Source: Candidatus Poriferisocius sp.
Lineage (GTDB): Bacteria > Actinomycetota > Acidimicrobiia > Acidimicrobiales > Bin134
NCBI RefSeq assembly: GCF_965214065.1
Contig: NZ_CBDCAT010000027.1
Span: 823,968 to 887,967 of the forward strand
Reading direction: 5' to 3'
DNA: 64,000 nt
This document shows, in pieces, positions 23,263 through 44,103 of this stretch. The first letter of the stretch is position 1. The number at the start of each line of letters is the position of its first letter. Both the position numbers and the translations under genes were made by a program. Under the pieces are notes generated by a model. The model did no database searches and was not told the DNA's origin. It was given only the letters and a program-made list of their open reading frames with translations.

Positions 23263-24147
23263 TCATTCCTCTTCGACGGTGGACTCGTAGTGCTGGGCAC
23301 CGGGACCCAAGGGTGCTCGGATGCCGCGGAACTCCCAGTCCCCGCCTTTGGCGGTGGACTGCACCTCTTCGGAGTTCGACGGCTGCGCCCCCACATCGTC
23401 CCGGATGGGCGTGGGACCGGACACGATGGTGTTGGTGAGCGCGCCCAGGCCCTCCACTTCCACGGTGACCACGTCGCCGGGTTGCACCGGGCGGGAATTG
23501 GCTGGCGTACCCGACAGCAAGATGTCTCCCGGCACCAAGGTGATGGTGCGGGCGATGTCGGCCACGATGTAGTGCATGTCCCATTCCATCTCATCGGTGG
23601 TGGCGTCTTGTTTGACGTCTCCGTTCACGATGGTCTGGATTCGCTTGCCCCTAAAGTCCCACCCGGTGACCAGGCCGGGGCCCACCGGGCACAGGGTGTC
23701 GCTGCCCTTCACCCGCAGCATTGAGCCGGCATCGGTGTCGCGGAAATCGTGGAGCCCGTAGTCGTTGGCCACCGAGTAGCCGGCGATGTAGTCCCCGGCC
23801 TCGGCGGGCGACACGTTGCGGCAGGTCTTGCCGATCACAATGGCGATCTCGCCCTCGTAATTCAGCCACTGACAGCCTTCTGGCCGCACCACGTCACTCT
23901 GGTGGCCCGTCAGGGCTGTGATCGGCTTGTGGAAATAGGTTGGCGCGGCTGGCAGTTTGGTCATGAACTCCTCTACACGGCTGCGGTAGTTCAGATGGAT
24001 GCAGATGATCTTGGTGGGCGTCACTGGTGGCAAATGGACGGCATCGTCGATGGCTGCCGATCGTCCGTCGCCAGATACGAGCCGGTCGCCAATGCGTTCA
24101 ACGTGGCAGGGGTAGCCGTCCATGAGGATGCGGCGATATTCGGACAT
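23263..24147 (-). CDS. Fumarylacetoacetate hydrolase (FAH) family protein (HpaG/HpcE-type isomerase/decarboxylase domain)
   Basis: GEIAIVIGK, GYSVANDYGLHDFR, KGSDTLCPVGP, PGDILLSGTP. Start chosen at MSEYRRILMDG (24147). Confidence 0.85.
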   Translation of the reverse strand: MSEYRRILMDGYPCHVERIGDRLVSGDGRSAAIDDAVHLPPVTPTKIICIHLNYRSRVEEFMTKLPAAPTYFHKPITALTGHQSDVVRPEGCQWLNYEGEIAIVIGKTCRNVSPAEAGDYIAGYSVANDYGLHDFRDTDAGSMLRVKGSDTLCPVGPGLVTGWDFRGKRIQTIVNGDVKQDATTDEMEWDMHYIVADIARTITLVPGDILLSGTPANSRPVQPGDVVTVEVEGLGALTNTIVSGPTPIRDDVGAQPSNSEEVQSTAKGGDWEFRGIRAPLGPGAQHYESTVEEE

Positions 24148-24172
24148 GTCTGGCAATCTACCCATTGATCCC

Positions 24173-24679
24173 ATGGCAACCGACTCCAATCCCGGTGAAC
24201 GTCTGCTCGATGCCGAAGTAGACATTCAGGCTCGGCTGGGTGACCAGCCCCTCGACTTCGACTCGATGCAGGCCATATCCAACATCTACCGGGCCGCCGC
24301 GGCCGTGCGGCGCCGGGCTGAGCGGGAGTTGTTGGCCGAGGCGGGACTGTCGTGGGGCGGCTTCACCATATTGTGGGTGCTGTGGGTGTGGGGGGAGATG
24401 GAAGCGGCCAAGCTGGCCGCCGAATGCGATTTGGCCAAGGGCACCCTGACCGGGATGGTGACCACCCTGGAGAAGCAAGGCAGGGTCGAGCGCACCCGCA
24501 TGCAGACGGACCGCCGCCGAGTCAAAGTGGCCCTGACCCCCGCAGGACTCTCGACCATCGAGCATCTGTTTCCCCAGTTCAACGACTTCGAGGGCAAGAT
24601 GAGCGGAGGCCTCAACGTCGCCGAAAAACACGAACTGGCCCGCCTCCTGCGGGCAGTAACCACGAACGCCTCTGAGTAG
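24173..24679 (+). CDS. MarR-family transcriptional regulator
   Basis: Winged HTH AAKLAAECDLAKGTLTGMVTTLEKQGRVERT. It is divergent from the FAH/ALDH pair. The start is uncertain (24122, 24146 or 24173). Confidence 0.85.
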   Translation: MATDSNPGERLLDAEVDIQARLGDQPLDFDSMQAISNIYRAAAAVRRRAERELLAEAGLSWGGFTILWVLWVWGEMEAAKLAAECDLAKGTLTGMVTTLEKQGRVERTRMQTDRRRVKVALTPAGLSTIEHLFPQFNDFEGKMSGGLNVAEKHELARLLRAVTTNASE

Positions 24680-24680: not shown

Positions 24681-26144
24681 TCAGCCAATAACAAACGGGT
24701 CGCGGGTGGCGCCGGTGAGCTCTACCCAGACGGTTTTGGTCTGGAGGAAGCCGTCGAGGGCTTCTAGGCCGTTGTCGCGGCCGTAGCCTGATTGCTTGTA
24801 ACCGCCGAAGGGGGCCATGTAGCTGACGTTGCGGTAGGTGTTGATCCACACCGTGCCCACCCGGAGCGCCCTCGACACCCGGTGGGCACGGCGGATGTCA
24901 TTGGTCCATATGCCGGCGGCCAGCCCGTAGTCGCTGTCGTTGGCGAGCTTGACCACCTCGTCTTCGTCTTCGAAGGCAATCACGGCCAGAACCGGGCCGA
25001 AAACCTCCTCCCGGACGATGGTGGACTGGTTGGTCACGCCGGTGATCACGGTGGGCCGCACGAACCGACCGCCGAGTTCGGGGTCGACCACACCGCCGGC
25101 GGCGATGGTGGCCCCCTCTCTGCGGGCCTGGTCGATCATGGCCAGGATCCGGTCCCGCTGGGCGTCGGACGCTGCCGGGCCCATCTCGGTGGCCGGATCG
25201 GAGGGATCACCGAGCACCAGTTCATTGGCCCGATCCACGACCCGTCCGATTACCTCATCGAAGATGTCGCGGTGTACGTAGGCCCTGGATCCGGCAATGC
25301 AGGTCTGGCCACTGGCCGCGAAGATCCCGGCCAAGAGCCCGTTGGTCACCGCCGCGGGGTCGGCGTCGGCGAAGATGATTTGGGGTGATTTACCGCCCAG
25401 CTCCAGCACTGTAGGCGTCAGATTGTCGGCCGCCGCCCGGGCCACGTGCTTGGCGGTGGCCCCGCCGCCGGTGAAGGTGATCTTGTCGATGTCAGGGTGG
25501 GCGGTGATGGCCGCGCCCACCTCGGCCCCTCCGGTCACGACGTTGACGACTCCGGGAGGAAACCCGGCCTCCCCTGTCCGCTCGGCCAGCATCAGCGCGG
25601 TGACCGGGGTGATGTCGGAGGGCTTGACTACCACGGTGCACCCGGCGGCCAGGAGCGGGGCGAGCTTCCAGGTCAACAGGGCCAGCGGCGAGTTCCACGG
25701 GATGATGGCTCCCACTACCCCGATGGGCTCGCGCTCGGTGTACACCAGAAAATTGGGCGATGGGCTGGGCAATTGCTCACCGCCGATTTTGTCGGCCATC
25801 CCGGCGAAGAAGTCGTAATAGCCCTGCAAGCCCTTGGCCTGGGCCGACGTCTCCCGGATGATCTTGCCGTTGTCCCGGGTCTCAGCTTGGCCCAACTGCT
25901 CGGCATCGCGGCTCAGCAGCTCGCCCAAGCGGCGCATAAGCCGGGCCCGCTCGGTGGCGGGCATAGTGGCCCAGGGGCCGTCGGTGAACGCCCGCCGAGC
26001 CGCCCGGACGGCGTCGTCCACCGCGGCGGGGTCGTCGGCCACCTCGGCCCAGGGTTCCCCGCTGAACGGGTTGGCCGTCGCCATGCGCTGGCCGTTGGGT
26101 GGGGGAGCGAAACCCCCGTCGATCCAGTTGTCGTAGGTTTCCAT
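24681..26144 (-). CDS. NAD(P)-dependent aldehyde dehydrogenase
   Basis: LELGGKSPQIIFADAD and SGQTCIAGSRAYV. Its ATG overlaps the ferredoxin stop (TGATG). Confidence 0.9.
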   Translation of the reverse strand: METYDNWIDGGFAPPPNGQRMATANPFSGEPWAEVADDPAAVDDAVRAARRAFTDGPWATMPATERARLMRRLGELLSRDAEQLGQAETRDNGKIIRETSAQAKGLQGYYDFFAGMADKIGGEQLPSPSPNFLVYTEREPIGVVGAIIPWNSPLALLTWKLAPLLAAGCTVVVKPSDITPVTALMLAERTGEAGFPPGVVNVVTGGAEVGAAITAHPDIDKITFTGGGATAKHVARAAADNLTPTVLELGGKSPQIIFADADPAAVTNGLLAGIFAASGQTCIAGSRAYVHRDIFDEVIGRVVDRANELVLGDPSDPATEMGPAASDAQRDRILAMIDQARREGATIAAGGVVDPELGGRFVRPTVITGVTNQSTIVREEVFGPVLAVIAFEDEDEVVKLANDSDYGLAAGIWTNDIRRAHRVSRALRVGTVWINTYRNVSYMAPFGGYKQSGYGRDNGLEALDGFLQTKTVWVELTGATRDPFVIG

Positions 26145-26368
26145 CAGAGCTCCTTGTCAAGATTTTCTTCAACGATGGCGATGGCCTGGCCTGGGCAGCG
26201 ATCCACCACTGCTTCGGCTCGGTTACGGGGCAGTAGGCCGTCGCTGATGACCGAGGAGATGACCACGTCGTCGTCCAGTTCGAACACCTCGGGTTCGAGC
26301 ATCTCGCAAATCCCGCCGCCGATGCACAGCTCCTGGTCGACTGCCACTCGTACGGAGTTGCCGCTCAC
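26144..26368 (-). CDS. 3Fe-4S ferredoxin
   Basis: 74 aa with CIGGGIC ... CPGQAI. Its GTG start overlaps the P450 stop (GTGA). Confidence 0.8.
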   Translation of the reverse strand: MSGNSVRVAVDQELCIGGGICEMLEPEVFELDDDVVISSVISDGLLPRNRAEAVVDRCPGQAIAIVEENLDKEL

Positions 26369-27618
26369 CGGGCGCTCCGTTGCTGCATGCCTACCGATAG
26401 CACGCCGTGGACGAAGTTCGACCGGGCCCGCACCGGCTCGGAGGTCTGCTCCAGGCAGATCGACCGCTTGGCCATCTCCTCCAGCAGCACTGTCACTTCA
26501 AGGCGGGCCAAGAAGGCCCCCAGACACAAATGCGGACCGCCTCCGCCGAACGCGAAATGCTCGTTGTCGGTCCGGCCCAGATCGAAGCGGAACGGATCCT
26601 CGAACACGGCCTCGTCGCGGTTCGCCGAGGCGTACCACATCACCACCTTGTCGCCCTCGGCGATCTCGGTTCCGGCCAGCTCGGTGTCGGTGGTGGCCGT
26701 ACGCCTCATGTGCATAATCGGGGTGGCCCACCGCAGGATCTCCTCGGTAGCCGACTCGACCATCGATGGGTCGTTGAGCACCCGCTGCCACTCATGGGGA
26801 TTGGCGGCCAGCGCCATTGCCCCGTGGCTGAGGGCGGTGCGGGTGGTTTCGTTGCCGGCGAACACCAGCAGGTGGAACATGTTGCGGTATTCGCTCAGCG
26901 AGAAGCGCTCCCCCTCAGATTCGGCCTGCACCAAGTGCGAGACCAAATCGTCCTGGGGGTCGTTGCGCCGCTGTTGGTGCATGCCCTCGCCGTACTCGAA
27001 CAGAGCGTGGCTGGCCGGGCTGTTGAAGGGCAGCAGACGCAACTCGGTGGTGTTCCCGAATGCGTCGGGGGGAATGGACTGGGAGTCGCCGGTGCCCTCC
27101 ACCAGGTAATTCGACAACTCCACCAGGTAGTCGGAATCCTCCACGGGCACGCCGAGCATGGTCAAGATCACTTGGATGGGAAGCGGTGCGGCAACCATGG
27201 CAACCCAGTCGCCGCCGCCCTGGGCCGCGAACTCGTCCAGCAGCTCGCAGGTGATCTCGCGGACCACCTGCTCCCAGCGCCGGATGTTCTTGGGGGTGAA
27301 TGCGCCGGCCACCAGGCGCCGGAGCCGGGTGTGGTCGGGGGCGTCGGTGTCGATGAGCGACCGCCGGGCCTCCAGCGCATCGGCCTCCAAGTCCCACAGG
27401 TTGGTGTGGCCGATGGCCGACGAGAACAGCTCGGGGTTGCGGGACACATAACGCGCCTCGGCATGGCGGGTGACAGCCCAAAACCCACTGTCCTCATAGG
27501 GATGCCAGGCCAATCCATCGATGGCCCGAATCTGGGCGAATCGATCGTGGGGAATTCCTTGGAGGTACAGGCTGGGATCGGTGACGTTCGGCGTCTCTCC
27601 CACGGCGGTATACGCCAT
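26365..27618 (-). CDS. Cytochrome P450
   Basis: FGGGGPHLCLGAFLARLE heme loop, I-helix VFAGNETTRT, EILR. Start is ATG 27618 (1 nt after the GS-like stop, GGAG upstream) or ATG 27636. Confidence 0.9.
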   Translation of the reverse strand: MAYTAVGETPNVTDPSLYLQGIPHDRFAQIRAIDGLAWHPYEDSGFWAVTRHAEARYVSRNPELFSSAIGHTNLWDLEADALEARRSLIDTDAPDHTRLRRLVAGAFTPKNIRRWEQVVREITCELLDEFAAQGGGDWVAMVAAPLPIQVILTMLGVPVEDSDYLVELSNYLVEGTGDSQSIPPDAFGNTTELRLLPFNSPASHALFEYGEGMHQQRRNDPQDDLVSHLVQAESEGERFSLSEYRNMFHLLVFAGNETTRTALSHGAMALAANPHEWQRVLNDPSMVESATEEILRWATPIMHMRRTATTDTELAGTEIAEGDKVVMWYASANRDEAVFEDPFRFDLGRTDNEHFAFGGGGPHLCLGAFLARLEVTVLLEEMAKRSICLEQTSEPVRARSNFVHGVLSVGMQQRSAR

Positions 27619-27619
27619 C

Positions 27620-28963
27620 TCAGCAGTGCTCCGCATAACGGGCCCGCTCCCAGTCGTTCACATCGTCGGGATGAGGCGAGTGCTCTGGAGCCATGGCCAG
27701 CTCGTGGTCGGCCAACGTCAGGAAGCCATCCGAGAACACCTTCCCCAGCATCTCGGCCAGAGGGCTGTCCCGGTAGGCGGCGATGGCCCCGGCCAGATCG
27801 GCTGGCAGCGGAAGCGAGTCGCCGGGGTCGGCGTACATGTCGCCGTCGCTCATGGGCGGCAGGGGAAGTGCCCGCTCGATCCCGTCTAGGCCTGCGGCCA
27901 AGATGGCGGCGATCATCAGGTAGGGGTTGGCGTCCGCGCCCGACGAGCGGTGCTCTACCCGGTTGGCCTGCGAGCCGGGTTCGCAGATGCACCGGCACAG
28001 CACCGAGCGGTTGTCCAAGCCCCAGTGCACATGGGTGGGTACGAACGTATAGGGGCGGATGCGCTTGGGGCCGTTTATGGTGGGCGCACCCAAAAGCGTC
28101 ATGGCATCAGCGTGCTCGAGTAGACCGGCGACCCAGTGCCCCATGAGCTGGTTGGGCATGCCGTCGGAGTCGGCAAAGGAGTTGGCCCCGCCCTCAGACA
28201 GGCTGGTGTGGATATGCATGCCCGATCCCGACGGCTCGGTCCAAAGCTTGGGCATGAAGGTGGCCCGCATCCCGTGTTGGACGGCTACCTGCTTGACGAT
28301 GCTCTTGAGCAGCACGGTGTTGTCGGCACAGGTCATGGCGTCGGCGTGGCCGATGTTGATCTCCATCTGGCCCGGGCCGTACTCGGGGTTGGACGATTCC
28401 AACTCCAGGCCGGCCCCAAGCAAGCCGTGGCGCATGTCCCGCACGCAATCCTCCAGCTCCAGGGCGTCGGTGAGCGAGGAGTACTGGATGTGGTTCTGCA
28501 CCGGCGTCCAGTCGGGGGCGCAGATGTAGAACTCCAATTCGGTGGCCACCACCGGGTCCAACCCGGCTTGGCGGCACCGCTCGACCTGGTTGGCCAGCAC
28601 GTTTCGGGGTGAGGCGGGGTGGGGCTCGCCGTGGGGGTCGAAAGTGTCGGCGAACACCAACGCGTAGCCGGGGCGGTGGGAGAAGATGCGGGCGGTGGAC
28701 ATGTCGGGCACGAGGTGGCAGTCGAGGAAGCCTGAATCCATGTTGATGTAGGGGTGATCGGGCAGGTCGTTTTGCATGTCGAACGCGAAAATGGCGTCGG
28801 CGATGTTGAGTCCGCCTTCGACGGTCGTCGAGAAGAACCGCTGCACCGGTACCCGCTTGCCCCGGATATGGCCCATCGTGTCGGGCGCGGCCACTTCGAC
28901 GGTGTGGACATCCGCCTGCTCACAGGCGGTGCGGAAATCGTCGATGGTGGTGGTCTCAGCCAT
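27620..28963 (-). CDS. Glutamine-synthetase-family gamma-glutamyl ligase (PuuA/IpuC/GlnA3-4-like)
   Basis: 447 aa with a GS catalytic-domain pattern: ELEFYI, PEYGPGQMEIN, FMPKLWTEPSGSGMHIHTSL, NRVEHR. It is the first gene of a 4-gene coupled operon. Confidence 0.85.
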   Translation of the reverse strand: MAETTTIDDFRTACEQADVHTVEVAAPDTMGHIRGKRVPVQRFFSTTVEGGLNIADAIFAFDMQNDLPDHPYINMDSGFLDCHLVPDMSTARIFSHRPGYALVFADTFDPHGEPHPASPRNVLANQVERCRQAGLDPVVATELEFYICAPDWTPVQNHIQYSSLTDALELEDCVRDMRHGLLGAGLELESSNPEYGPGQMEINIGHADAMTCADNTVLLKSIVKQVAVQHGMRATFMPKLWTEPSGSGMHIHTSLSEGGANSFADSDGMPNQLMGHWVAGLLEHADAMTLLGAPTINGPKRIRPYTFVPTHVHWGLDNRSVLCRCICEPGSQANRVEHRSSGADANPYLMIAAILAAGLDGIERALPLPPMSDGDMYADPGDSLPLPADLAGAIAAYRDSPLAEMLGKVFSDGFLTLADHELAMAPEHSPHPDDVNDWERARYAEHC

Positions 28964-28986: not shown

Positions 28987-29154
28987 CTAGTGGTGTGTCT
29001 TGGGTTTAGCGCCGTGGATTGCGACGGCAGCGGCGTTCCTCGCAAGGCGCACCGACGCAGCCATACCCGGAGCGTACGGCAAGGAGGGGCAACGCCGCGA
29101 GGGGCTTCGATGCCTAGCAGGACACGCGCGAATAAACCCAAGACACACCACTAG
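28987..29154. repeat. 168-bp element bounded by perfect 22-bp terminal inverted repeats (MITE-like or long structured RNA)
   Basis: CTAGTGGTGTGTCTTGGGTTTA (28987-29008) is the exact reverse complement of TAAACCCAAGACACACCACTAG (29133-29154). A 124-bp non-coding core lies between them. The right arm contains the TAG stop of the ADH gene. Confidence 0.6.
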
Positions 29155-30131
29155 TTGGCATGGGCTTGGTCGATCAGGAGCACCAGGCGGCCTTCGACGT
29201 CGCCGGCGCGCAAACGGTCGTGGGCCATCTGCGCATCGGTGAATGCCATGGTCTCCACCGGGGCGATGATGGACGGTTCCCGGCGGGCCAGGTCGAGGAG
29301 CTCGCCCAGCTGTGTTCGGGTGCCCCAGATGCTGGACATGAAGCGGGCCTCGTGGGGAACGGCTCCAACGCCAAACGGGACGCGGCCGCCGTATAGGCCG
29401 ACTGCCACCACCACACCCCGCCGGGCCACCGCACCGGCAGCCGTGGCCAGCGTGGCATCGAGTGCAACGAAATCAACCACCGCATCGAACAGCGGCAGAT
29501 CGTCGTCGGCGTCAAACGCCCCGTCGGCGCCGATGGCCACCGCGGTGGCCCGCTTGTCGGGTGCTCGGTCGAGGGCGTAAACCTCGGCGTCGGTCAACAG
29601 CTTGAGGTAGCGCAGCGCGAACTGACCTATCCCCCCGGCGCCGATCACCAGAACCCGGCGCTTCCGGCCAGGACGGCGCAGCGTCTCCAGGGTTTGCTGC
29701 ACCGCCCGATAGCCGGTGAGGCCCCCGCAGGCCAACGGCGCGCTGGCCACAGGGTTAAGATCGCCCAGCGGGTAAAGGTAGGCCCGATCGGCGATGCCCA
29801 TGCGCTCGGCGTAGCCCCCGTCGACCACCAGGCCGGCCTCGGTGGCATCGGCGCAGATCATCTCGTATCCGTCAGCGCACTCCCGGCATCGCCCGCACCC
29901 CCACGGGGCGTACACCATCACCGGCCCCAGTTCGGGGTGGTTCCCGGTGACCTCGTGGCCCAGCACGATGGGGAGCGGGCTCGGGAATTCGCCGGCCACT
30001 ACGTGCAAGTCGGAGTGGCACAGCCCGCAAGCAATGACGTCGATGACCTCGCTGCCGTTGGCATCGGGCTCGGGATAGTCATCCACCACCTTCAGGGGCG
30101 AGTTCCGGGCTTCGAGGACGACGGCGCGCAT
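29151..30131 (-). CDS. Zinc-dependent alcohol dehydrogenase (MDR family)
   Basis: CGLCHSDLH, GHEVTG, structural-zinc CGRCRECADGYEMIC, and VIGAGGIGQFA Rossmann motif. Confidence 0.9.
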   Translation of the reverse strand: MRAVVLEARNSPLKVVDDYPEPDANGSEVIDVIACGLCHSDLHVVAGEFPSPLPIVLGHEVTGNHPELGPVMVYAPWGCGRCRECADGYEMICADATEAGLVVDGGYAERMGIADRAYLYPLGDLNPVASAPLACGGLTGYRAVQQTLETLRRPGRKRRVLVIGAGGIGQFALRYLKLLTDAEVYALDRAPDKRATAVAIGADGAFDADDDLPLFDAVVDFVALDATLATAAGAVARRGVVVAVGLYGGRVPFGVGAVPHEARFMSSIWGTRTQLGELLDLARREPSIIAPVETMAFTDAQMAHDRLRAGDVEGRLVLLIDQAHAN

Positions 30132-30197: not shown

Positions 30198-32090
30198 TCA
30201 TGACGCCGACGATCCGAGGTACGCGGCTTGTACCGTGGGGTCGGCTTGGATCTCTTCGGGGGTGCCCTCGGCGATGACGGTGCCGCGGTCCAAGCAGTAG
30301 ATGCGGTCGCAGATCCCGATTATGAAGTCCAGATCGTGGTCGATAACCACCACGCCGGCGCCCACCAAAGCAGCCATGGTCTGCACCTGTTCGACCATGG
30401 CCAGCGACTCGGTGTCGCTCATTCCCGATGTGGGCTCGTCGAGCAGCAAGAACAGCGGTCGGGCCGCGGCGGCTCGGGCCAACTCCAGCCGACGGGAGTT
30501 GCCGTAGTCGAGTTCCCCGGCCCGTCGGTCCCGGTGGTCCCACAATCCGGCGGCGGCCACCAGGACGTCGGTCTCGGGGTTGGAGCGATCGTTGTGCTCG
30601 GCTATGGCCACGAGGCGAGTCACCTCTACGTTCTCCCGGACGGTGAGCGACCCGAACAACCGCAGATTCTGGAACGTGCGAACCAACCCGGCCCGGGCGA
30701 TTTCGTGCGACGGGGTGCCGACGAGGTCGGTGCCGTTCAGCCGGACTCGCCCCGAGTTGGCGGGGACGAGCCCGGTGACGACGTTGAGCATTGTGGTCTT
30801 TCCCGCGCCATTGGGGCCGATGATTCCCACCACCTCCCCGCTGCCCACCTCGAAACCCGACTGGGAGAGCGCCTGGAATCCGCCGAAGGAGACGCTGACG
30901 TCGGTTACTTCAAGTCGGGCCTTATGCGTAGAGCTCATTGAGACATCTGGCACCGTCGGAGCGCTTTGCACCCGGGTGAATCGGCGGTAGAGCCACTCGT
31001 CGAACTCCCAGTCGCTGAGCAGGCCTTTGGGCCTCCAGATCATGAAGCCGAGCATGGCTGCGCCGAAGAACACCGTCTGGAGGTTCTCCCGGAAGATCCA
31101 GTCCAATGGCGCGCTGTCCAGGCCGAGGCCGAACACCTCGAAGCCGTCCTGGCCCAGTCGGCGGGCGAGTTCCCGGCCCACGGTCATGACGGCCACCCCG
31201 AACAGGGCACCGGTCACGCTGTTTCGCCCACCGACAATCAGCATGGCCAAGGTCAGCAGTGTGTAGTCGAAGAAGAAGTTCTCCGGCAGGATCGAACCGG
31301 TCTCATAGACCCGCAGGCTGGCCCCCACCGACACCACCACCACCGAGATCAACAGCGCGATCATCTGCTGAACCATGGGGTTGACCCCCATGGCCCTCGC
31401 CGCCAGATCGTCCTCCCGCCCTGCTTTGGCCAAGCGGCCTCGCCGGCTTTGGGCAAAGATGCGGGCCAGCACAAGGGCGCTGGCCAGCGCCAAGAAGATC
31501 GGCATTCGGGTACCGAGGGCGCCGCCGATTCGGAACGACAGCCCAGCGCGCTCGCCGCCGGTCAACTCCGGCCAGTTGCGGGCCACTTCGTGGGTCACAA
31601 ACAGCAGTGCCAGCGTGATGACGGTAGCGGCGACCGCCCCCGACTCGGCTCCCGAGCGGGTCAGGCCGATGCCGACGAAGACAGCGGCTACCACCGTTAC
31701 GGCGATGGCCACGCCCGCAGCCGCCCAAGAGCCCATGTCCACATCGGTAAGGCCCAGCGGCGCGTCGGGAATGCGCTTTGCCTTCTCCAAGGGGGCGATG
31801 GCGAATATGGCGAATGTGTAACCGGCAATGGCCCCGAACCCGATGTGGCCGAACGACAGCACCCCGGTGTTGCCCACATAGATCTGGATACCGAGCACGA
31901 TGATGGCATCGATGAGGGCAATGGTGACCAGACGCTCTGCCGCCCCGCCGAAGAAGCTCTGGTAGAACAGCCCGACGGCGACGAACACGCCGAACAGCAG
32001 CCCCATCCCGACAATGGGGAAGGCCACATCTCGGCGAAGATCGGGGAACATTCCCGCGTGGGCTGCGGTCGGGCCGCGCTGTTCGGCCAT
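30198..32090 (-). CDS. Fused branched-chain-amino-acid-type ABC permease (LivM-like) and ATP-binding (LivG-like) protein
   Basis: 631 aa from MAEQRGPT (ATG overlaps the livH stop, TGATG). The N-terminal ~350 aa are multi-TM. The C-terminal part has GPNGAGKTT, YGNSRRLELARA and LLLDEPTSGMS, with no stop between the two parts. The upstream part of the 945-aa track ORF overlaps livH out of frame. Confidence 0.8.
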   Translation of the reverse strand: MAEQRGPTAAHAGMFPDLRRDVAFPIVGMGLLFGVFVAVGLFYQSFFGGAAERLVTIALIDAIIVLGIQIYVGNTGVLSFGHIGFGAIAGYTFAIFAIAPLEKAKRIPDAPLGLTDVDMGSWAAAGVAIAVTVVAAVFVGIGLTRSGAESGAVAATVITLALLFVTHEVARNWPELTGGERAGLSFRIGGALGTRMPIFLALASALVLARIFAQSRRGRLAKAGREDDLAARAMGVNPMVQQMIALLISVVVVSVGASLRVYETGSILPENFFFDYTLLTLAMLIVGGRNSVTGALFGVAVMTVGRELARRLGQDGFEVFGLGLDSAPLDWIFRENLQTVFFGAAMLGFMIWRPKGLLSDWEFDEWLYRRFTRVQSAPTVPDVSMSSTHKARLEVTDVSVSFGGFQALSQSGFEVGSGEVVGIIGPNGAGKTTMLNVVTGLVPANSGRVRLNGTDLVGTPSHEIARAGLVRTFQNLRLFGSLTVRENVEVTRLVAIAEHNDRSNPETDVLVAAAGLWDHRDRRAGELDYGNSRRLELARAAAARPLFLLLDEPTSGMSDTESLAMVEQVQTMAALVGAGVVVIDHDLDFIIGICDRIYCLDRGTVIAEGTPEEIQADPTVQAAYLGSSAS

Positions 32091-32977
32091 CACACCCGCT
32101 CCGCGTGGGCTACCCGGATGAGGCCTTGGGGTCGGAAGATGAACAGCAGGGCGATCAGCAAGAACACGAAGCCCTCGGTGAGGCTGGCCACCGAATCGGG
32201 CAGTCGGGATCTCAGCAGGACTTCGGCCAGTCCGAGCACGAAGCCGCCCAGCACTGCGCCTCTGAGGCTTCCCAATCCGCCGATCAGCGCGGCCAGGACC
32301 CCCTTGAGCATCGGGGTGATACCAGCGCTCGGCACCGTGTTGCCAGCCCGCATGAGCCAGAAGACTCCGGCGATGCCGGCCAACAGACCGGAGAGGGCGA
32401 ACGCACCCCGGATCACGGTGTCCGAGCGCACCCCCATGAGCCGGGCGGTGTCGAAGTCGGCGGCCGCGGCCCGCAGGGCTAGGCCGAACATGGTGCGCTG
32501 AATGAGCCACGAAGTACCCAGCAGGGTGACCAGGGTCACCCCGATCACCACCGTGTCGAACACCTCGACGTTCAGAGACCCGATGGGGTAGGTGTTGGTA
32601 ACCCAACCGGGTCGTGAGAACGTCTTGACCGACGCGGAAACGTAGAGCAAGAAGATGGCGAACACCACGAAATGAACGCCGAACGAGGTCAACAGCAGCG
32701 TGAAGTCGGAGCTTCCTCGGACGCGGCTGAACGCCACCCGTTCGATGACCAGCGAGGTCATGATGGCGGTCCCGATTATGGCCGGGGTGACCAGGTACCA
32801 CGACCAGCCCTCGTTGATGGTCCAGAAGGCCACATAGCCCGAGACGGTGATCAGCTCGCCGTGGGCGAAGTTGAGAAGGTGCATGACGCCGAAGATCACA
32901 GCCACGCCCAGGGCCAGCAACGCGTAGATGCTGCCCCGGCCCAGGCCGTCGATGAGGTTCTGGAGCAACTCGGTCAT
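32090..32977 (-). CDS. livH: Branched-chain-amino-acid-type ABC permease (LivH-like)
   Basis: 295 aa, multi-TM, starting MTELLQNLIDGLGRGSIYALLALGVAVIFG, a typical LivH N-terminus. Confidence 0.85.
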   Translation of the reverse strand: MTELLQNLIDGLGRGSIYALLALGVAVIFGVMHLLNFAHGELITVSGYVAFWTINEGWSWYLVTPAIIGTAIMTSLVIERVAFSRVRGSSDFTLLLTSFGVHFVVFAIFLLYVSASVKTFSRPGWVTNTYPIGSLNVEVFDTVVIGVTLVTLLGTSWLIQRTMFGLALRAAAADFDTARLMGVRSDTVIRGAFALSGLLAGIAGVFWLMRAGNTVPSAGITPMLKGVLAALIGGLGSLRGAVLGGFVLGLAEVLLRSRLPDSVASLTEGFVFLLIALLFIFRPQGLIRVAHAERV

Positions 32978-33684
32978 TTGCCGCTGCCTCCCACGAAGGT
33001 GTCGAACAGGTCGGGGCGTTCTCGCAGCTCTGCACCGGTGCCTTCGGCCACCACCTCTCCCGATCTCAGCACGTAGGCCCGGTCGGCCACCTCCAGCATT
33101 CGGGTGGCATTCTGCTCGACGACCAGCAGGGTGCGCCCTTGATTGCGAAGTGTCTCGATCAACTCGAAAACCACGTCCACCAGCACGGGGGCCAGCCCGA
33201 GGGATGGCTCGTCCATCATCAGCAGTCGAGGCTTCGACATAAGGGCCCGGGCGATGGCCAGCTGCTGGGCCTCTCCGCCTGATAGGTAGCCGGCGGACAC
33301 GTTCCGCTTTTCCCGCAGCACCGGGAATCGCTCGCCCATTTCGTCCAGCAGTCTGGCCCGCTCATCGCGAGGCTGGGTGATACCGCCGATTCTCAGGTTT
33401 TCCTCAACGGCGAGGTCGCCGAAGATCCGCCGGTGCTCGGGTACCAAGGCCACCCCTAGGCGCAGGAGCTTTTCCGGCGACTGGCCGGTGATGTCGGCGC
33501 CCTCGAAAGCCACTGTTCCGGCTGCGGGGGAGAGCAGTCCGGCGATCGACCCCAACAGCGTGGTCTTGCCCGCACCGTTGGGCCCGATGAGGCCGACGAC
33601 CTCACCGGACCCTACGTGCAGTTCAGCGTCTCGAAGTGCTGAGATCGCACCGTATCGGGTAGTCAATCTCGAGACTTCGAGCAT
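32974..33684 (-). CDS. livF: Branched-chain-amino-acid-type ABC ATP-binding protein (LivF-like)
   Basis: GPNGAGKTT, LSGGEAQQLAIARA, LMMDEPSLGLAP. Confidence 0.9.
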   Translation of the reverse strand: MLEVSRLTTRYGAISALRDAELHVGSGEVVGLIGPNGAGKTTLLGSIAGLLSPAAGTVAFEGADITGQSPEKLLRLGVALVPEHRRIFGDLAVEENLRIGGITQPRDERARLLDEMGERFPVLREKRNVSAGYLSGGEAQQLAIARALMSKPRLLMMDEPSLGLAPVLVDVVFELIETLRNQGRTLLVVEQNATRMLEVADRAYVLRSGEVVAEGTGAELRERPDLFDTFVGGSGK

Positions 33685-33731: not shown

Positions 33732-34949
33732 TTAACCGATGGTGGCGACCAGGGTGTCCACGCCGTTCACGATCTGGTTGATCGGCACGGCCTTGGGTGG
33801 AATCCCGTTGGTGCCGGCGAAGGTGATCGCGCCGGACAGACCCCGGAAGCCTTGGATCTGGGCCACTGCGGCGCCGATCTCGGCCGGGTCGGTGCAGCCG
33901 CAGTCCAAGATCCCCTGGATGCCCAAGAACATCGAGTCCACGTACAGGGCCATGAAGCCCCGGCTCTCCAGCGCCTCGCCCTTGGCGGCCTCATAGTCGG
34001 CCAGCATCCGGTCGATGCGGTCACCCGGCGAGATGCTGGTATGGGGAGTGTGGGCGATGCCCTCGTTGTTGTCCTCGAACTGGATGCCGGTGGCGTCCAG
34101 AGCGTCGGTGCCCAGGTAGGTGAGGCCGTCGAGACCTTGGCCCTCGAGTTGGCCCCGCAGGGCGGTGACCTGGAAGCCGAGGGCGGCAGAGAACACCACC
34201 TCGTTGTTCTGGGAGATGCCCGCGATCTCGTTGACCTGGGCGGAGAAGTCGGTGTCACCCGCCCACACGTAGGTCTGCACGCTGACCACCTCGCCGCCAA
34301 GTTCCTCGAACTTGGCCATGAAGGCGTCGGGGTTCACACCGGTGTAGGGAATGCCATCGCCCTCGGTGAACACAATGGCCCGGTTGATGCCCTCATTGTA
34401 AGCCCACTGGGCCGCGGCCTCCGACATGCCGTAGTCGTCGAAGGTCACCAGGAACGAGTTGATCGCGGCATCGGCCAGGGTCGGCTCGGTGGAGGCGGCC
34501 ACGAACAGCGGTACCTGGCCCTCGGTGGCCTGGAGGATCGGCAGAGCGAAATCAGCGAACGGCGGGCCAATCAGGAAGTGGGCGCCCCAATCCAGGAGCT
34601 CCTGGGTGGCCAGCACGGCGTCGTCTCCGACCTCGGCCACACGGACCTCGACCGGCGAGCCGTAGATGCCGCCGGTGCAGTTGACCTTCTCGGCGATGAA
34701 AGGCACCAGCTTGGAGCCGGGGATGTCCACGAACCCGACAACGTCGCTGAAGTCCATGGCCATACCCACCCGGATGGGATCGCCGGTGGGTGCGTCGGCG
34801 CAGTCGTCCAAGTCGGCGGCCAGGATTCCGTCGATGTCCACCGCGGCACCATCAGGCGCTGAGGTTGCCCCGCCGTCATCGTCGTTGCCGCAGGCGGCGA
34901 CTACCAGGGCAAAAATCGCCAAGAGTGCCAACAAGATCTTGAGTTTCAT
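33732..34949 (-). CDS. Liv-type (type I periplasmic binding fold) substrate-binding lipoprotein
   Basis: MKLKILLALLAIFALVVAAC|GNDDDG lipoprotein signal. 405 aa. First gene of the SBP-F-H-MG operon. Confidence 0.85.
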   Translation of the reverse strand: MKLKILLALLAIFALVVAACGNDDDGGATSAPDGAAVDIDGILAADLDDCADAPTGDPIRVGMAMDFSDVVGFVDIPGSKLVPFIAEKVNCTGGIYGSPVEVRVAEVGDDAVLATQELLDWGAHFLIGPPFADFALPILQATEGQVPLFVAASTEPTLADAAINSFLVTFDDYGMSEAAAQWAYNEGINRAIVFTEGDGIPYTGVNPDAFMAKFEELGGEVVSVQTYVWAGDTDFSAQVNEIAGISQNNEVVFSAALGFQVTALRGQLEGQGLDGLTYLGTDALDATGIQFEDNNEGIAHTPHTSISPGDRIDRMLADYEAAKGEALESRGFMALYVDSMFLGIQGILDCGCTDPAEIGAAVAQIQGFRGLSGAITFAGTNGIPPKAVPINQIVNGVDTLVATIG

Positions 34950-37351: not shown

Positions 37352-37462
37352 CGGGTTGCTTTGTGTTCGCAGGGCACAGTCACTGTCTCGACTCTATTGT
37401 TGATAACCCCGGCCGCGACAGTCCGGTTGAATCGTTTGGTACCGAATGATTATACTGCCGCC

Positions 37463-38278
37463 GTGGCCGACCTCAAGGGGTTCATGTATCCCCGCTCACC
37501 CTCCGGTGCCGCTGGCATCCTGCCCGGTCCGCCGTGGCACTACTCGGGCGAGATGCTAACAGTGGAGTTCCGCACCGATCCGGCCAACGTGGCCGAGCTG
37601 CTCCCCGAGCCGCTGAAGCCAGTTGATGACGACCCCGGTGCCGTCGCCCTTATCTGGGCCGACTGGCAGAGTTGCAGCGACAGCTTCGAGGAGATCCTCG
37701 ACCCGGCTCGGGCCCAGTACAAAGAAGTGTTCTTGGTGGTGCGCTGCTCCTATCAGGGCCAGGTCTTCAGCCGGGCGGCCTACATCTGGGTGGACAAGGA
37801 CTTTGCCATGGCCCGGGGCCACATCCAGGGCTACCCCAAGAAGATGAGCGAGATCTGGATGACCCGGCCGGTGGCCTACGGCAAAGCCGGTCCCCGGCTC
37901 GAGCCCGGCGGGCAGTTCGGCGCCACCCTCAGCACCTGGGGGCGGCGGATCGCCGAGGCCCGGTTCACCATCCAGGGCACCGCCGAGGCGCCCGGATTCG
38001 TCAACGGCCACCCCATGCTGCACAGCCGCCAGATGCCGTCTATCGAGATGGACGGGCGCGACTCGCTGGACGAGCTGGTGACCATGCGGGGCTACGACGC
38101 CGACTTGGGCCCGGTGTTCAGCGGCGATGCCGAGCTAGTGCTGCCCGAGAGCCCCACCGAGGAGCTCACCCGCCTGGCGCCCTTCGAGGTCATCGGCGGC
38201 TATTACCGGCAAGTGGGCAACTCCATGGCCGGGGGCACCACGCTGTGGGCCGCCCCCAACCCGATGGAATCCGATTGA
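37463..38278 (+). CDS. Acetoacetate decarboxylase (ADC) family protein
   Basis: GTG start giving VADLKGFMYPRSPSGAAGILPGPPWHYSGE, the characteristic ADC-family N-terminus. The stop overlaps the P450 ATG (TGATG). Confidence 0.7.
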   Translation: MADLKGFMYPRSPSGAAGILPGPPWHYSGEMLTVEFRTDPANVAELLPEPLKPVDDDPGAVALIWADWQSCSDSFEEILDPARAQYKEVFLVVRCSYQGQVFSRAAYIWVDKDFAMARGHIQGYPKKMSEIWMTRPVAYGKAGPRLEPGGQFGATLSTWGRRIAEARFTIQGTAEAPGFVNGHPMLHSRQMPSIEMDGRDSLDELVTMRGYDADLGPVFSGDAELVLPESPTEELTRLAPFEVIGGYYRQVGNSMAGGTTLWAAPNPMESD

Positions 38279-39549: not shown

Positions 39550-39598
39550 TGCAAGATCCAATTGCTGGAATCCGGCTCCCCTCGATCCAGGGGGCAGC

Positions 39599-40462
39599 GT
39601 GATGGGCGCCATTGTCGGCGCCGGGCTGGTCTCCCACGTTCCGCCGCTGGTGATGCCCGAGGCGATTCGCCGCCTGCTCAACAACGGCGAGGACACCACG
39701 CTCTACCAGGGTCTCCACGACTTGGGCGCTGAGCGGCTGGGCCCTCTGAGCGCCGACACCGTGGTGGTGGTGGACACCCACTGGTTCACCACCGTCGAGC
39801 ACATAGTGACTTCCGCCGACCGCCGGTGCGGACTGTTCACGTCCGAAGAGCTGCCCCGGGGCATGAGCCAGATGCCCTATGACATGCCTGGCGACCGGGA
39901 GCTGGCCGAGGCGTGGGCCTCCCAGGCCGCCGGTCGGGACGACACCTGGGTAACCGCCATCGACGACCCCCATATGCCGGTCCACTATCCCACCATCAAC
40001 CTGCTGGGGTTCTTGCAAGGTGACGAGGCGTGGATTTCGGCCGGCATCTGCCAGACCGCCGAACCGGAAGACTTCCTCTTGTTCGGCGAGCTGCTGGCTC
40101 AGGCGGTGGCGAGCCTGGACCGCCGGGTGGTGGTGTTGGCCAGCGGCGGGCTGAGCCACCGGTTCTGGCCGCTGCGCCAGTTCCGCGACCACGAAGGAGC
40201 CGATCCCGCTCTGCATCTTCGCACTCCTGAGGCGCGCGCCGCCGACGAGCACGTCATCGACTGCCTCACCAGGGGTGACCATGCCGGGGTGCTCGACTTC
40301 TTGCCCGAGTTCTCCACCCACGCCCCCGAGGGGTTCTTCGGCCATTACCTGACCATGGTCGGCGCTCTGGGCGGGGCGGACTGCACGACCCCTGGCGAGC
40401 AGTTCGGCCAATATGAGGCGGTCGCCGGGACAGGACAGATCCATCTATGGTTCAGCCCGTGA
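39599..40462 (+). CDS. hpaD: Class III (LigB-superfamily) extradiol dioxygenase, homoprotocatechuate 2,3-dioxygenase (HpaD/HpcB)-like
   Basis: VSHVPPL, VVVVDTHWF, FTSEELPRGM..PYDMPGDRELA, VVVLASGGLSHRF, EGFFGHYLTMVGALGG, GTGQIHLWF. From memory, these parallel E. coli HpcB segment by segment. Confidence 0.7.
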   Translation: MMGAIVGAGLVSHVPPLVMPEAIRRLLNNGEDTTLYQGLHDLGAERLGPLSADTVVVVDTHWFTTVEHIVTSADRRCGLFTSEELPRGMSQMPYDMPGDRELAEAWASQAAGRDDTWVTAIDDPHMPVHYPTINLLGFLQGDEAWISAGICQTAEPEDFLLFGELLAQAVASLDRRVVVLASGGLSHRFWPLRQFRDHEGADPALHLRTPEARAADEHVIDCLTRGDHAGVLDFLPEFSTHAPEGFFGHYLTMVGALGGADCTTPGEQFGQYEAVAGTGQIHLWFSP

Positions 40463-41166
40463 AGCGCGCTCTGGCCATCGCCCACGAGGTGGACGGTCTG
40501 CCCGGCCAGATTGCCACCCGTTTGCGCCAGCGGGGCTATGAAGTCCACATCCACGTTGTTACCCACGACTACGACCACCCCAACGTCGCCGTGCCGTTTC
40601 CGCCCATGGACGACTACGACCTGCTGTTGCCCATGGGCTCGGTGCGCTCGCTCACCGACAAGGCCGAGATCGATACTTGGATCTATGAAGAGCTCGACAT
40701 GATCAGACAGGCCCATGAGGCGGGCAAGCCCGTGTTGGGAATCTGCTTCGGCGGACAGCTGATCTCCGAAGCGCTCGGCGGCACAGTCGAGGTGTCCCCG
40801 GTGACCGAGATCGGCTGGTTCGAGCTCGGCGACGGCGAAGACGGCCCCAACCCGGCCGGGCCGGGGCCGTGGATGCAGTGGCACCACGACCGCTTCACCC
40901 CGCCCCCCGGATCTGAGGTGCTGGCCCGCAACGACAGCTCGGTGCAGCTCATCAGGATCGACCGCACGGTGGGAACCCAGTTCCACCCCGAGGTCGACGT
41001 GGCCCACGTCGAGTCGTTCCTCAGGTTGGCCCCGAAAGACTACTTGGACGAATGCGGGGTGGACTTCGACCAGCTCATGGAGGAGACCCGCCAGCACGAG
41101 ATGGCCAACATCAAGCGGTGCCACGCCTTTGTCGACTGGTACCTCGACGAGGTGCTGGCCGATTAG
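40447..41166 (+). CDS. Class I glutamine amidotransferase-like protein
   Basis: VLGICFGGQLI (nucleophile Cys) and GTQFHPE (His-Glu). It overlaps the dioxygenase gene by 16 nt. Confidence 0.8.
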   Translation: MVQPVKRALAIAHEVDGLPGQIATRLRQRGYEVHIHVVTHDYDHPNVAVPFPPMDDYDLLLPMGSVRSLTDKAEIDTWIYEELDMIRQAHEAGKPVLGICFGGQLISEALGGTVEVSPVTEIGWFELGDGEDGPNPAGPGPWMQWHHDRFTPPPGSEVLARNDSSVQLIRIDRTVGTQFHPEVDVAHVESFLRLAPKDYLDECGVDFDQLMEETRQHEMANIKRCHAFVDWYLDEVLAD

Positions 41167-41187
41167 CGCACCCCTCAGCCGGGTTTC

Positions 41188-42501: not shown

Positions 42502-42537
42502 GGAGTTATTCCTCTCATGACGGAGAGATTTGTTGTC

Positions 42538-43371: not shown

Positions 43372-43395
43372 GAGCGAATAGAAGCGAACAGTTCT

Positions 43396-44103
43396 ATGGC
43401 CACGAAACCCCCCCTGATCGGATTGCCCGGCCGGCGCAAGCGCGGCTCAGAGGTACGCGGCTTGCTGAAGGTGCTAGATGACTGCGACCTCGACCTGTAC
43501 TTCGCCGATTACGCCCGCGGCGTCATCGAGGCGGGCGGGATTCCGGTGCACATTCCCATCGACGTTGATCCGGCTGCTGTCGGCGAGCGGCTCGACGGGC
43601 TGGTGTTGCCCGGGGGAACCGACATCGACCCGATTCGATACGGGGCCGATCCCGATCCTGAATTGCTGGCTCCTGAATTGGAACGCGATGACTTGGAGTT
43701 GGGGCTGCTGTCAGCTGCGTTGGATGCCGACATCCCGGTGCTCGGCATCTGTCGGGGTATCCAGGTACTCAACGTCCACCAGGGGGGCACACTGCACCAG
43801 CACGTCCCGGAACACAACCGCCTCGACATTTCCATCCATTCCGCTACTCACCGGGTGAACTTCGCCGAGGACTCCACCCTTTATGAGCTTTATGGCCCGT
43901 CAGCCCAGGTCAACAGCCTCCACCATCAAGCGGTGGCCAACGTGGGTCGCGATCTCACCGTCACCGCCCAGACCGACGACGGCACCATCGAGGGTTTGGA
44001 GATGGGCGACTCAGTAGTGACCGTGCAATGGCACCCGGAGATGATGCCCACCCGCCCCACGGATCCGATCTTCCGCTGGCTGGTGGATCGAGCGTCTTGC
44101 TAG
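43396..44103 (+). CDS. Gamma-glutamyl-gamma-aminobutyrate hydrolase (PuuD)-like peptidase C26
   Basis: VLGICRGIQVLNV (Cys nucleophile), VQWHPE, LPGGTDIDP. Confidence 0.85.
   Translation: MATKPPLIGLPGRRKRGSEVRGLLKVLDDCDLDLYFADYARGVIEAGGIPVHIPIDVDPAAVGERLDGLVLPGGTDIDPIRYGADPDPELLAPELERDDLELGLLSAALDADIPVLGICRGIQVLNVHQGGTLHQHVPEHNRLDISIHSATHRVNFAEDSTLYELYGPSAQVNSLHHQAVANVGRDLTVTAQTDDGTIEGLEMGDSVVTVQWHPEMMPTRPTDPIFRWLVDRASC

Follow-up and report, generated by a model that had tools for sequence, protein, structure and literature searches.

We analysed a window of 64,000 nucleotides from Candidatus Poriferisocius sp. (contig NZ_CBDCAT010000027.1, positions 823,968 to 887,967 of the forward strand; coordinates below are those of the window unless a contig or locus is named), which carries an operon built around a glutamine synthetase (GS)-like ligase, a cytochrome P450, a ferredoxin and an aldehyde dehydrogenase (ALDH). 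The genome assembly comprises 3.79 Mb in 28 contigs, and the public runs that contain the sequence include a sponge metagenome. Open reading frames (ORFs) and Pfam matches bear out the four minus-strand genes proposed by a first-pass annotation: GS1, predicted to be an organic-amine-type, ATP-dependent gamma-glutamyl ligase of the GS family (27620..28963, 447 aa, Gln-synt_C 283 bits); P450_1, a cytochrome P450 that groups with the CYP125/CYP124 clade (26365..27636, with its start at 27636 or 27618, 423 aa, Pfam p450); a ferredoxin, apparently of 3Fe-4S type, with the pattern CxxGxxC...CP (26144..26368, 74 aa, GTG start, Pfam Fer4_15, Fer4_19 and Fer4_13); and ALDH1, an NAD(P)-dependent aldehyde dehydrogenase (24681..26144, 487 aa, Aldedh 563 bits). 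The near-zero spacing claimed between these genes also holds when the junctions are re-read base by base. The GS1 stop codon TGA (27622-27620) is separated by one base from the P450 ATG at 27618, giving TGAgATG, and an alternative in-frame ATG at 27636 would produce a 17-nt overlap with GS1; GTGA at 26368-26365 combines the P450 stop with the GTG start of the ferredoxin; and TGATG at 26146-26142 combines the ferredoxin stop with the ALDH1 start. Many shadow ORFs surround these genes, but a G+C content at third codon positions (GC3) of 0.85-0.87 supports GS1, P450_1 and ALDH1 as real coding genes; the GC3 script had a size cut of 100 aa, below which the 74-aa ferredoxin falls.

The downstream end of the operon is marked by a MarR-family regulator on the plus strand (24122..24679, Pfam), which converges with ALDH1 and probably belongs with FAH and ALDH2 genes beyond the operon; the gene order MarR (minus strand), FAAH, ALDH2 recurs after the operon in relatives. 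A scan of the locus for promoters and terminators performed no better than on shuffled sequence, and no Rfam family was found between 19 and 45 kb in the window. Public runs searched for RNA gave none that was usable: those mapped to the window behave like DNA, and the single run labelled as RNA yielded nothing.

Synteny in relatives shows that the four genes are a real core but that the unit is longer than the first-pass annotation proposed. A scan of one genome per species, with the GS1 alignment as query, returned 287 pattern-confirmed relatives; counts out of 80 refer throughout to the best 80 of these, all of them species-level genomes of Acidimicrobiia with 64-94% GS1 identity and drawn from Poriferisocius, Aldehydirespirator(aceae), Ilumatobacter(aceae), Microthrix and metagenome-assembled genomes from soil and sediment. 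The full conserved order begins with a Liv-type ATP-binding cassette (ABC) importer and reads solute-binding protein (SBP), LivF, LivH, LivM/G, [GntR, acyl-CoA dehydrogenase (ACAD)], Zn-dependent alcohol dehydrogenase (ZnADH), GS1, P450, [GabT-like aminotransferase], ferredoxin, ALDH1, [second P450]. The bracketed genes are extras found in relatives: GntR and ACAD in 58/80, the GabT-like gene in 22/80, where it lies between P450 and ferredoxin in a PuuE-like position, and the second P450, which is about 50% identical, in 43/80. The genome of the window has lost GntR, ACAD, the GabT-like gene and the second P450, and thus represents a minimal form of the unit.

In the window, all upstream members lie on the minus strand. 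The first gene of the unit encodes an SBP of the Peripla_BP_6 Liv type with an N-terminal signal-like sequence (33732..34949, Pfam), which accompanies GS1 in 62/80 loci and whose best match in the Protein Data Bank (PDB), the branched-chain amino-acid-binding protein 3td9 (E = 1e-14), is a weak hint to substrate. It is followed by a LivF-like ABC ATPase (32974..33684, Pfam ABC_tran and synteny), a LivH-like BPD_transp_2 permease (32090..32977, GC3 0.87 and synteny), a fusion of a LivM-type permease with a LivG-type ATPase (30198..32090, Pfam BPD_transp_2, ABC_tran and BCA_ABC_TP_C), which aligns over its full length with a 630-aa orthologue in locus L046, and ZnADH (29151..30131, Pfam ADH_N and ADH_zinc_N, with CHSD and GHE zinc-ligand motifs). 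ZnADH lies upstream of GS1 in 63/80 loci and is ancestrally the gene directly upstream of it. Here, a 168-bp element whose 22-bp terminal inverted repeats are perfect (28987..29154, no strand assigned) sits exactly at the ZnADH stop codon TAG and widens the ZnADH-GS1 gap to 187 nt. Because this multi-copy repeat has 17 BLAST matches in the genome, at 87-100% identity, we regard it as an insertion resembling a miniature inverted-repeat transposable element (MITE). In same-genus relatives without the element, the ZnADH-GS1 spacer is intact, at 23 nt and with the same GAGG ribosome-binding site; in public runs, read depth spikes and contigs break at the element. As the insertion splits an ancestral junction, the four genes originally noted are the distal part of a longer operon.

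The ACAD that precedes ZnADH in relatives (L046:7829-8995 and its orthologues) carries a Glu where IVD and LCAD have their catalytic residue, within the motif NAERI, in 58/58 sequences and lacks Glu at the MCAD position, as is typical of enzymes that act on branched or long acyl chains. An identity of this ACAD as 3-sulfinopropionyl-CoA desulfinase is not supported, since it scores 202 on the NCBIfam model, where the cutoff is 600, and generic ACADs head its PDB matches.

The pairing of ligase and P450 is strongly conserved: a P450 orthologue immediately follows GS1 in 77/80 genomes, spanning several Acidimicrobiia families, and the junctions are tight, with a median GS1-to-P450 gap of 6 nt, gaps of 10 nt or less in 44/77 pairs and overlaps in 26. 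The ferredoxin-to-ALDH1 gap has a median of -1 nt and is 10 nt or less in 40/51 pairs, and across the 80 loci importer, ADH, P450, ferredoxin and ALDH travel together with GS1. The same picture emerges from the P450 side. Every fetched locus with enough flank has GS1 and P450 adjacent; of the 24 same-genus genomes with a P450 orthologue, 23 also have a GS1 orthologue, G021 being the exception; and in another family of bacteria a P450, 53% identical, is ATGA-coupled to a 55%-identical GS. In the P450 tree, the clade of P450_1 has 78 tips with support of 0.89 and is GS-linked in 75, and its sister lineage is GS-linked too. Orthologues from G021, L002 and G060, which have no adjacent GS, are nested inside this GS-linked clade and are thus secondary losses. 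G021 (locus L034) keeps a reduced island of SDR, thioesterase, ALDH1, ferredoxin, P450_1, ZnADH, glutamine amidotransferase (GATase) and C26 genes, all intact and 80-97% identical to those of the window, and is without importer, GS1, FAH, ALDH2, NicX-like gene, ADC, P450_2, LigB, GS2 and hydrolase-fold gene. In another genome, G015 (C1:840100-841104), a GS1 homologue of 76% identity matches residues 115-447 only and may be a truncated or decaying copy; that genome is without a P450_1 orthologue.

We aligned GS1 with GlnA and PuuA from E. coli, IpuC from Paenarthrobacter aurescens TC1, the GS paralogues of its own genome and the 80 GS1 orthologues. Every metal, ATP, phosphate and glutamate ligand is invariant: E129, E131, E212, E220, H269 and E357, as well as G265, H271, R321, R339, R344, R355 and R359, are kept in GS1 and in 80/80 orthologues. 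By contrast, the residues that handle ammonium in true GS are not conserved. The catalytic flap residue Glu327 has become Phe in all 80 orthologues, where PuuA has Tyr and IpuC has Trp; the Asp50' loop (FDGSS) gives way, as in PuuA and IpuC, to one longer by about 14 residues; and Asn264 is Ser. One caveat is that GS1 retains Tyr179 and has a Tyr aligned with the adenylylation site, although the motif NLYDLPPEE is not kept. GS1 thus combines both features of the organic-amine ligase class (PuuA / IpuC / NpaA1 type), namely ligands kept and ammonium-handling residues lost, a pattern described as the hallmark of glutamyl organic-amide synthetases (GoaS), none of which is reported to use ammonium (PMC11335346). 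The pocket for the amine in GS-family enzymes is located between subunits.

Scores and identities agree with this assignment. GS1 falls below every NCBIfam equivalog cutoff, scoring 231 against 650 for PuuA (NF045547), 209 against 470 for the GS-III model TIGR03105 and 201 against 429 for the GlnA model TIGR00653. Among plasmid hits and E. coli PuuA and GlnA, its closest named comparator is the gene annotated ipuC on pTC2 of P. aurescens TC1 (36% identity, 249 bits); identity to E. coli PuuA is 32%, and the 35% identity to E. coli GlnA extends over 213 aa only. Conversely, GS1 is the gene of its genome that best matches TC1 IpuC, and also the one that best matches E. coli PuuA. The genome has five GS-family genes in total; among those located elsewhere are a true GlnA (53% identical to that of E. 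coli) and a second GlnA-like gene. We therefore rejected GS1 as a true glutamine synthetase of GlnA type I, II or III, given the scores below cutoff, the missing flap Glu and the separate GlnA, and likewise as a PuuA equivalog, given 231 bits against 650 and 32% identity. From the residue signature, the low GlnA scores and the likeness to IpuC and PuuA, we conclude, in line with the first-pass annotation, that GS1 is an organic-amine gamma-glutamyl ligase rather than an ammonium-dependent GS; its class is read from sequence, and its reaction and substrate are inferred.

P450_1 is 49% identical to a reconstructed CYP125 ancestor (CYP125MRCA, 8vxi) and 43% identical to CYP124A1 over 352 aligned residues; natural CYP125A1 chains match at a lower bit score of 257, and CYP125, CYP268, CYP142 and CYP153 follow as further solved relatives. 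P450_1 clearly belongs to the CYP125/CYP124 clade; this is an assignment at the level of clade and not of family, for which the nomenclature rule sets at least 40% identity to family members. CYP125, CYP124, CYP268, CYP142 and CYP153 hydroxylate sterol side chains, branched lipids and alkanes at terminal positions. P450_1 has an intact heme loop (FGGGGPHLCLG) and I-helix motif (AGNETT), and its F-G region has an insertion of about 11 residues relative to the CYP125 ancestor and CYP124A1. Identity to other P450 paralogues in its own genome is 30-42%, and to the P450 of the TC1 Ipu cluster only 30%. The genome as a whole is unusually dense in P450s, with about 40-50 tblastn matches to a single P450 query on contigs C23-C28 (a hand count over 3.8 Mb).

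The remaining enzymes of the core also retain their catalytic motifs. The ferredoxin motif reads CIGGGIC...CP, and its middle residue is G, V, A, I or S but never Cys in 63 orthologues, which indicates a ferredoxin of the 3Fe-4S P450 type; identity to the ferredoxin of the TC1 Ipu cluster is 35%. ALDH1 has both Glu252 and Cys282 and is 40% identical to E. coli PuuC. Its best NCBIfam scores are for BADH (508), ABALDH (464), StyD (456) and PuuC (391), all below cutoff, so that the best family models are those of aminoaldehyde (aminobutyraldehyde) and betaine-aldehyde dehydrogenases. ZnADH supplies an alcohol-to-aldehyde step that the first reading had passed over.

The operon was said to contain neither a gamma-glutamyl hydrolase nor a ferredoxin reductase, and this is correct. 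One reductase of the FdR type was found in the genome, on another contig (C25:131045-132118), and the hydrolase-like genes belong to a second module. Two plus-strand genes had been named as candidate hydrolases. Both are real, one encoding a class-I GATase-like protein (40447..41166, Pfam) and the other a Peptidase_C26 protein (43396..44103, Pfam 189 bits), a candidate PuuD-type gamma-glutamyl hydrolase that ranks first in the genome as a match for both PuuD (32-33%) and the TC1 Ipu amidotransferase (37%). Synteny rules out, however, that they are members of the GS1 operon: within 10 kb of GS1, a C26 gene occurs in just 6/80 loci and a GATase gene in 9/80; six genomes of the Aldehydirespirator type have a single C26 orthologue, which is 250-330 kb distant from the GS1 operon; and in the three of these regions that were fetched C26 belongs to a separate block of ADC-fold, P450_2, LigB, GATase, GS2, ACAD-fold, alpha/beta-hydrolase and C26 genes. 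As this conserved block stands elsewhere in relatives, we assign both genes to the neighbouring GS2/LigB/P450_2 module, from which the C26 protein possibly acts in trans for the GS1 operon.

This second gamma-glutamyl module (37361-44103) comprises an MppR/ADC-fold protein, P450_2 (at about 38329-39549, 41% identical to P450_1), LigB, GATase, GS2, an alpha/beta-hydrolase and C26. In GS2, the flap Glu is replaced by Leu and His271 by Asn. Within this genus the GS1 and GS2 modules form one island and are jointly present or absent in 23 genomes, and elsewhere they can be unlinked or occur singly; G060 has a GS1-type gene without a GS2-type gene, and G057 has the reverse. Two minus-strand ORFs lie between the importer and the module. 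A 346-aa protein (35082-36122) has no Pfam or NCBIfam match and is a clear homologue of NicX, a 2,5-dihydroxypyridine 5,6-dioxygenase (PDB 7cn3, E = 1.8e-54), which suggests that the island encodes chemistry for cleaving pyridine or N-heteroaromatic rings. We considered this protein as the missing hydrolase and set it aside, as it is a NicX-type dioxygenase homologue whose linkage to the operon is limited to this genus. The adjoining ORF (36140-37351) has ACAD domains and matches FadE16-type models best and SfnB and other ACAD models as well; it also scores on models of the ACAD-fold flavin monooxygenases HsaA, DszC and the oxygenase component of p-hydroxyphenylacetate 3-hydroxylase, and a role as a hydroxylase is more probable than one as an acyl-CoA dehydrogenase. 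Its counterpart in other genera lies between the alpha/beta-hydrolase and GS2. At the far end of the window, a class-III aminotransferase-like ORF (60730-62193, minus strand) adjoins two homologues of the FAD amine oxidase PuuB, which are 30-31% identical to E. coli PuuB and reach past the window end (C27:887752-890276); this region, which is about 35 kb away from the operon, may represent a further locus for amine catabolism.

Taken at the level of sequence, the locus keeps together, as one unit, what appear to be a competent organic-amine-type ligase, a P450 with a 3Fe-4S ferredoxin, a Zn-dependent alcohol dehydrogenase, an aldehyde dehydrogenase and an importer for small solutes. By analogy with the Ipu and Puu pathways, we think it probable that the four genes form the core of an autonomous operon for gamma-glutamyl-dependent catabolism of an imported organic amine. 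In the Ipu pathway, IpuC makes gamma-glutamyl-isopropylamide, which is hydroxylated by a P450 system, with later steps by an amidotransferase-like hydrolase, an ADH and an ALDH (PMC6776027), a precedent that agrees with the earlier statement that its P450 acts on a gamma-glutamyl amide. We propose that the Liv-type importer takes up the amine and that GS1, whose class is indicated by its residues, would join it to the gamma-carboxyl group of glutamate at the expense of ATP. The neutral gamma-glutamyl amide would then be the substrate of P450_1, as the adjacency of the two genes and the Ipu precedent suggest, with electrons passing through the 3Fe-4S ferredoxin from a reductase encoded elsewhere. 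In the sub-route that we prefer, hydroxylation would occur at a carbon remote from the nitrogen, since this uses every conserved dehydrogenase and fits the P450 clade: ZnADH would oxidise the alcohol to an aldehyde and ALDH1 the aldehyde to an acid, yielding a gamma-glutamyl amino acid. A C26/PuuD-type hydrolase acting in trans could release the amino acid, which the GabT-like enzyme may transaminate in the 22/80 genomes that carry it. The sequence of gamma-glutamylation, P450/ferredoxin oxidation and aldehyde oxidation given in the first-pass annotation therefore survives, on the strength of the ligase signature, the gene pairing and the Ipu precedent, but it had omitted the ADH step and misplaced the operon boundaries and the hydrolases.

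Several observations weigh against this proposal. First, the nearest characterised relatives of P450_1 oxidise sterol side chains and methyl-branched lipids rather than small polar amides. Second, the components are just 30-36% identical to their Ipu counterparts, a likeness of logic and not of orthology. Third, no dedicated gamma-glutamyl hydrolase lies in the conserved GS1 operon of any lineage examined, and the sole C26 gene can be as far as 330 kb away. Fourth, the operon acyl-CoA dehydrogenase found in 58/80 relatives is superfluous to the preferred sub-route. Finally, three P450 orthologues (G021, L002 and G060) have no adjacent GS, and the whole genome of G021 is devoid of a GS1 orthologue, so that a P450/ADH/ALDH set can persist without the ligase.

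Candidate substrates fall into two groups, namely aliphatic biogenic amines (short, branched or cyclic) and arylethylamines, for example tyramine. The operon occurs in lineages from sponges, seawater, soil and sludge, a distribution that favours a common biogenic amine over a metabolite peculiar to sponges. Branched or short aliphatic amines are weakly hinted at by the Liv-type importer, by a P450 clade that is specialised for methyl-branched termini and by an ACAD with an IVD/LCAD-type catalytic base. The presence of ring-cleavage neighbours in about half of genomes (27/57) makes an arylethylamine possible as a substrate without requiring one.

A tentative alternative keeps the same ligase step and changes the position of hydroxylation. 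If P450_1 instead attacked the carbon alpha to the amide nitrogen, in an oxidative N-dealkylation, the carbinolamide would collapse spontaneously to glutamine and a free aldehyde or, with a cyclic amine, the ring would open to a gamma-glutamyl aminoaldehyde; ALDH1 would make the acid, which would enter beta-oxidation by way of the operon ACAD, acyclic amines would need no hydrolase, and nitrogen would be delivered as glutamine. P450-catalysed N-dealkylation followed by an ALDH is known from the thcB/thcA system of Rhodococcus, and mycobacterial morpholine and piperidine P450s hydroxylate an alpha carbon. On this account the absence of a hydrolase gene from the operon of every lineage is expected, the core of ligase, P450, ferredoxin and ALDH becomes chemically self-sufficient, and the ACAD with its invariant IVD/LCAD-type catalytic Glu, present in the operon of 58/80 relatives, acquires a function. 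The same account, however, leaves the conserved ZnADH (63/80) and the embedded GabT-like transaminase (22/80) without a necessary role, and the operon has neither a CoA ligase nor a CoA transferase. Moreover, the CYP125/CYP124 clade is known for hydroxylation of terminal methyl groups, and in Ipu, the only documented experimentally described route that joins a ligase to a P450, a methyl group is hydroxylated and the glutamyl group is retained (PMC6776027). It is doubtful that the operon encodes a hydrolase-free route of this kind, in which nitrogen leaves as glutamine and the skeleton passes from aldehyde to acid to acyl-CoA. Were it so, the route would be widespread in marine, sponge-associated, soil and sludge Acidimicrobiia and would offer an alternative to amine oxidases and dehydrogenases that depends on ATP and O2 and in which free ammonia is never released; the three weak hints noted above mean that it may act on biogenic amines with a branched chain, for example isoamylamine or isobutylamine.

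We consider it unlikely that the operon is the entry arm of a pathway for arylethylamines of the tyramine, dopamine or phenylethylamine type, in which glutamylation would be followed by P450 ring hydroxylation, LigB and the HpaE-like and HpaG-like enzymes would cleave the ring with the glutamyl group still attached, and ALDH1, C26 and a transaminase would turn a gamma-glutamyl-aminobutyraldehyde-type fragment into gamma-aminobutyrate (GABA). The appeal of this scheme lies in the island of this genus, where the operon is joined by an HpaE-like ALDH2, an HpaG-like FAH, LigB, an ADC/MppR-fold protein, P450_2, GS2, GATase and C26; the joint presence or absence of GS1 and GS2 in 23 genomes of the genus, and the recurrence of MarR-FAH-ALDH2 after the operon in many lineages despite reshuffled gene order, point the same way. 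Outside the genus, the association loosens. Ring-cleavage-type genes lie less than 10 kb from the operon in only 27 of the 57 loci with full flanks, the operon of Aldehydirespirator-type genomes stands alone with its own importer and GntR and with the GS2/LigB module 250-330 kb off, and GS1-type and GS2-type genes are separated in G060 (the former alone) and G057 (the latter alone). In addition, the operon acyl-CoA dehydrogenase would have no role, and aromatic hydroxylation would be a departure for the CYP125/CYP124 clade.

Least probable is that P450_1, ZnADH and ALDH1, in the manner of CYP125/CYP124 systems, terminally oxidise a non-nitrogenous lipid, terpenoid, hopanoid or sterol-like compound from methyl through alcohol and aldehyde to acid while the GS-like gene serves separately in amine detoxification or assimilation: CYP125 and CYP124 are indeed the closest solved relatives, the genome has many P450 paralogues (the ~40-50 tblastn matches), G021 keeps a P450-ferredoxin-ALDH-ZnADH set without any GS1 orthologue, L002 has the importer directly followed by two P450s with no ligase, and an acyl-CoA dehydrogenase is often in the operon, but the ligase lies immediately upstream of the P450 in 77/80 genomes, often overlapping it, the GS-less cases are secondary losses, a Liv-type importer and a GabT-like transaminase suit small nitrogenous solutes rather than sterols, and the unit is without other steroid-degradation genes.

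Catabolism of an imported amine through a gamma-glutamyl amide that is oxidised away from the nitrogen is the reading that we prefer. A literature search found no paper describing the operon, and the literature on sponge Acidimicrobiia likewise yielded nothing on it; the strategy is known, and the combination of enzymes is undescribed in the literature searched. What sets the operon apart is a P450 of the CYP125/124 clade, an ABC importer, the absence of an in-operon reductase and hydrolase, the variable presence of ACAD, transaminase and second P450, and hosts that are uncultured Acidimicrobiia. That an amine can be tagged with a gamma-glutamyl group and then oxidised is established for putrescine, isopropylamine, anilines and cyclic amines, and the literature searched links this strategy to a few cultured soil bacteria. 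The operon described here occurs in at least 80 species-level genomes, and in up to 287 relatives, of uncultured Acidimicrobiia from sponges, seawater, soil and activated sludge. Naming the amine would reveal an organic-nitrogen source that these abundant symbionts and their free-living relatives draw from their hosts or surroundings, and would also tell whether nitrogen passes straight into glutamine. More broadly, the ligase/P450 pair could serve biocatalysis in the regioselective oxidation of protected amines.

Among known systems, the Ipu pathway of Pseudomonas sp. KIE171, for which annotated clusters exist on pTC1 and pTC2 of P. aurescens TC1, offers the closest parallel. Both systems have a GS-family ligase, a class-I P450 with a small ferredoxin, an ADH and an ALDH, and in both the flap Glu of the ligase has given way to a bulky hydrophobic residue (Trp in IpuC, Phe in GS1). 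As in Ipu, ligase and P450/ferredoxin are co-located and jointly conserved (77/80). The genes are not orthologues of those on pTC2, however, with 36% identity for the ligase and 30% for the P450, which belongs to a different clade (CYP125/124-like here), and 35% for the ferredoxin. Moreover, the TC1 ipu cluster includes a ferredoxin reductase and an amidotransferase-type hydrolase, neither of which is present in the operon described here; uptake would be by a Liv-type ABC importer rather than the amino-acid permease of Ipu; and relatives add GntR, ACAD, a GabT-like transaminase and a second P450.

The order of steps is the same in the Puu pathway of E. coli, in which a ligase, an oxidation to a gamma-glutamyl aldehyde, an ALDH, a C26 hydrolase and a GABA transaminase act in turn, and homologues can be matched to most of these: GS1 (32% identical to PuuA), ALDH1 (40% to PuuC), C26 (33% to PuuD) and the GabT-like gene of relatives. 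Two differences stand out. The C26 gene lies outside the operon, and the FAD oxidase PuuB is replaced by P450/ferredoxin plus ZnADH, which suggests that the oxidised carbon bears no second amino group.

A third parallel is provided by loci for cyclic amines. The pip genes of Pseudomonas sp. KU43P reportedly form a locus for cyclic secondary amines in which a GS-like gene lies beside a P450. Breakdown of pyrrolidine and piperidine leads to GABA and 5-aminovalerate, products that would fit the GabT-like transaminase of relatives. A GS-like gene likewise adjoins a P450 in mycobacterial pip/mor loci, where the P450 is CYP151 (PipA/MorA), and in Gulosibacter, where consecutive gene numbers in G. 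molinativorax (pipA/bioI loci) are ferredoxin 435, ferredoxin reductase 436, P450 437 and GS 438 (PMC9477822). The operon analysed here shares with pip/mor-type loci a GS-like gene beside a P450 and ferredoxin, and differs from them in having no ferredoxin reductase of its own. Finally, P450_1 shares the AGNETT I-helix and FGGGGxHxCLG heme loop with CYP125 and CYP124, the mycobacterial steroid C26-monooxygenase and methyl-branched lipid omega-hydroxylase, respectively. The gene setting of P450_1 differs: it is not a cluster for sterol or lipid catabolism but an operon that joins an amine ligase to a small-solute ABC importer.

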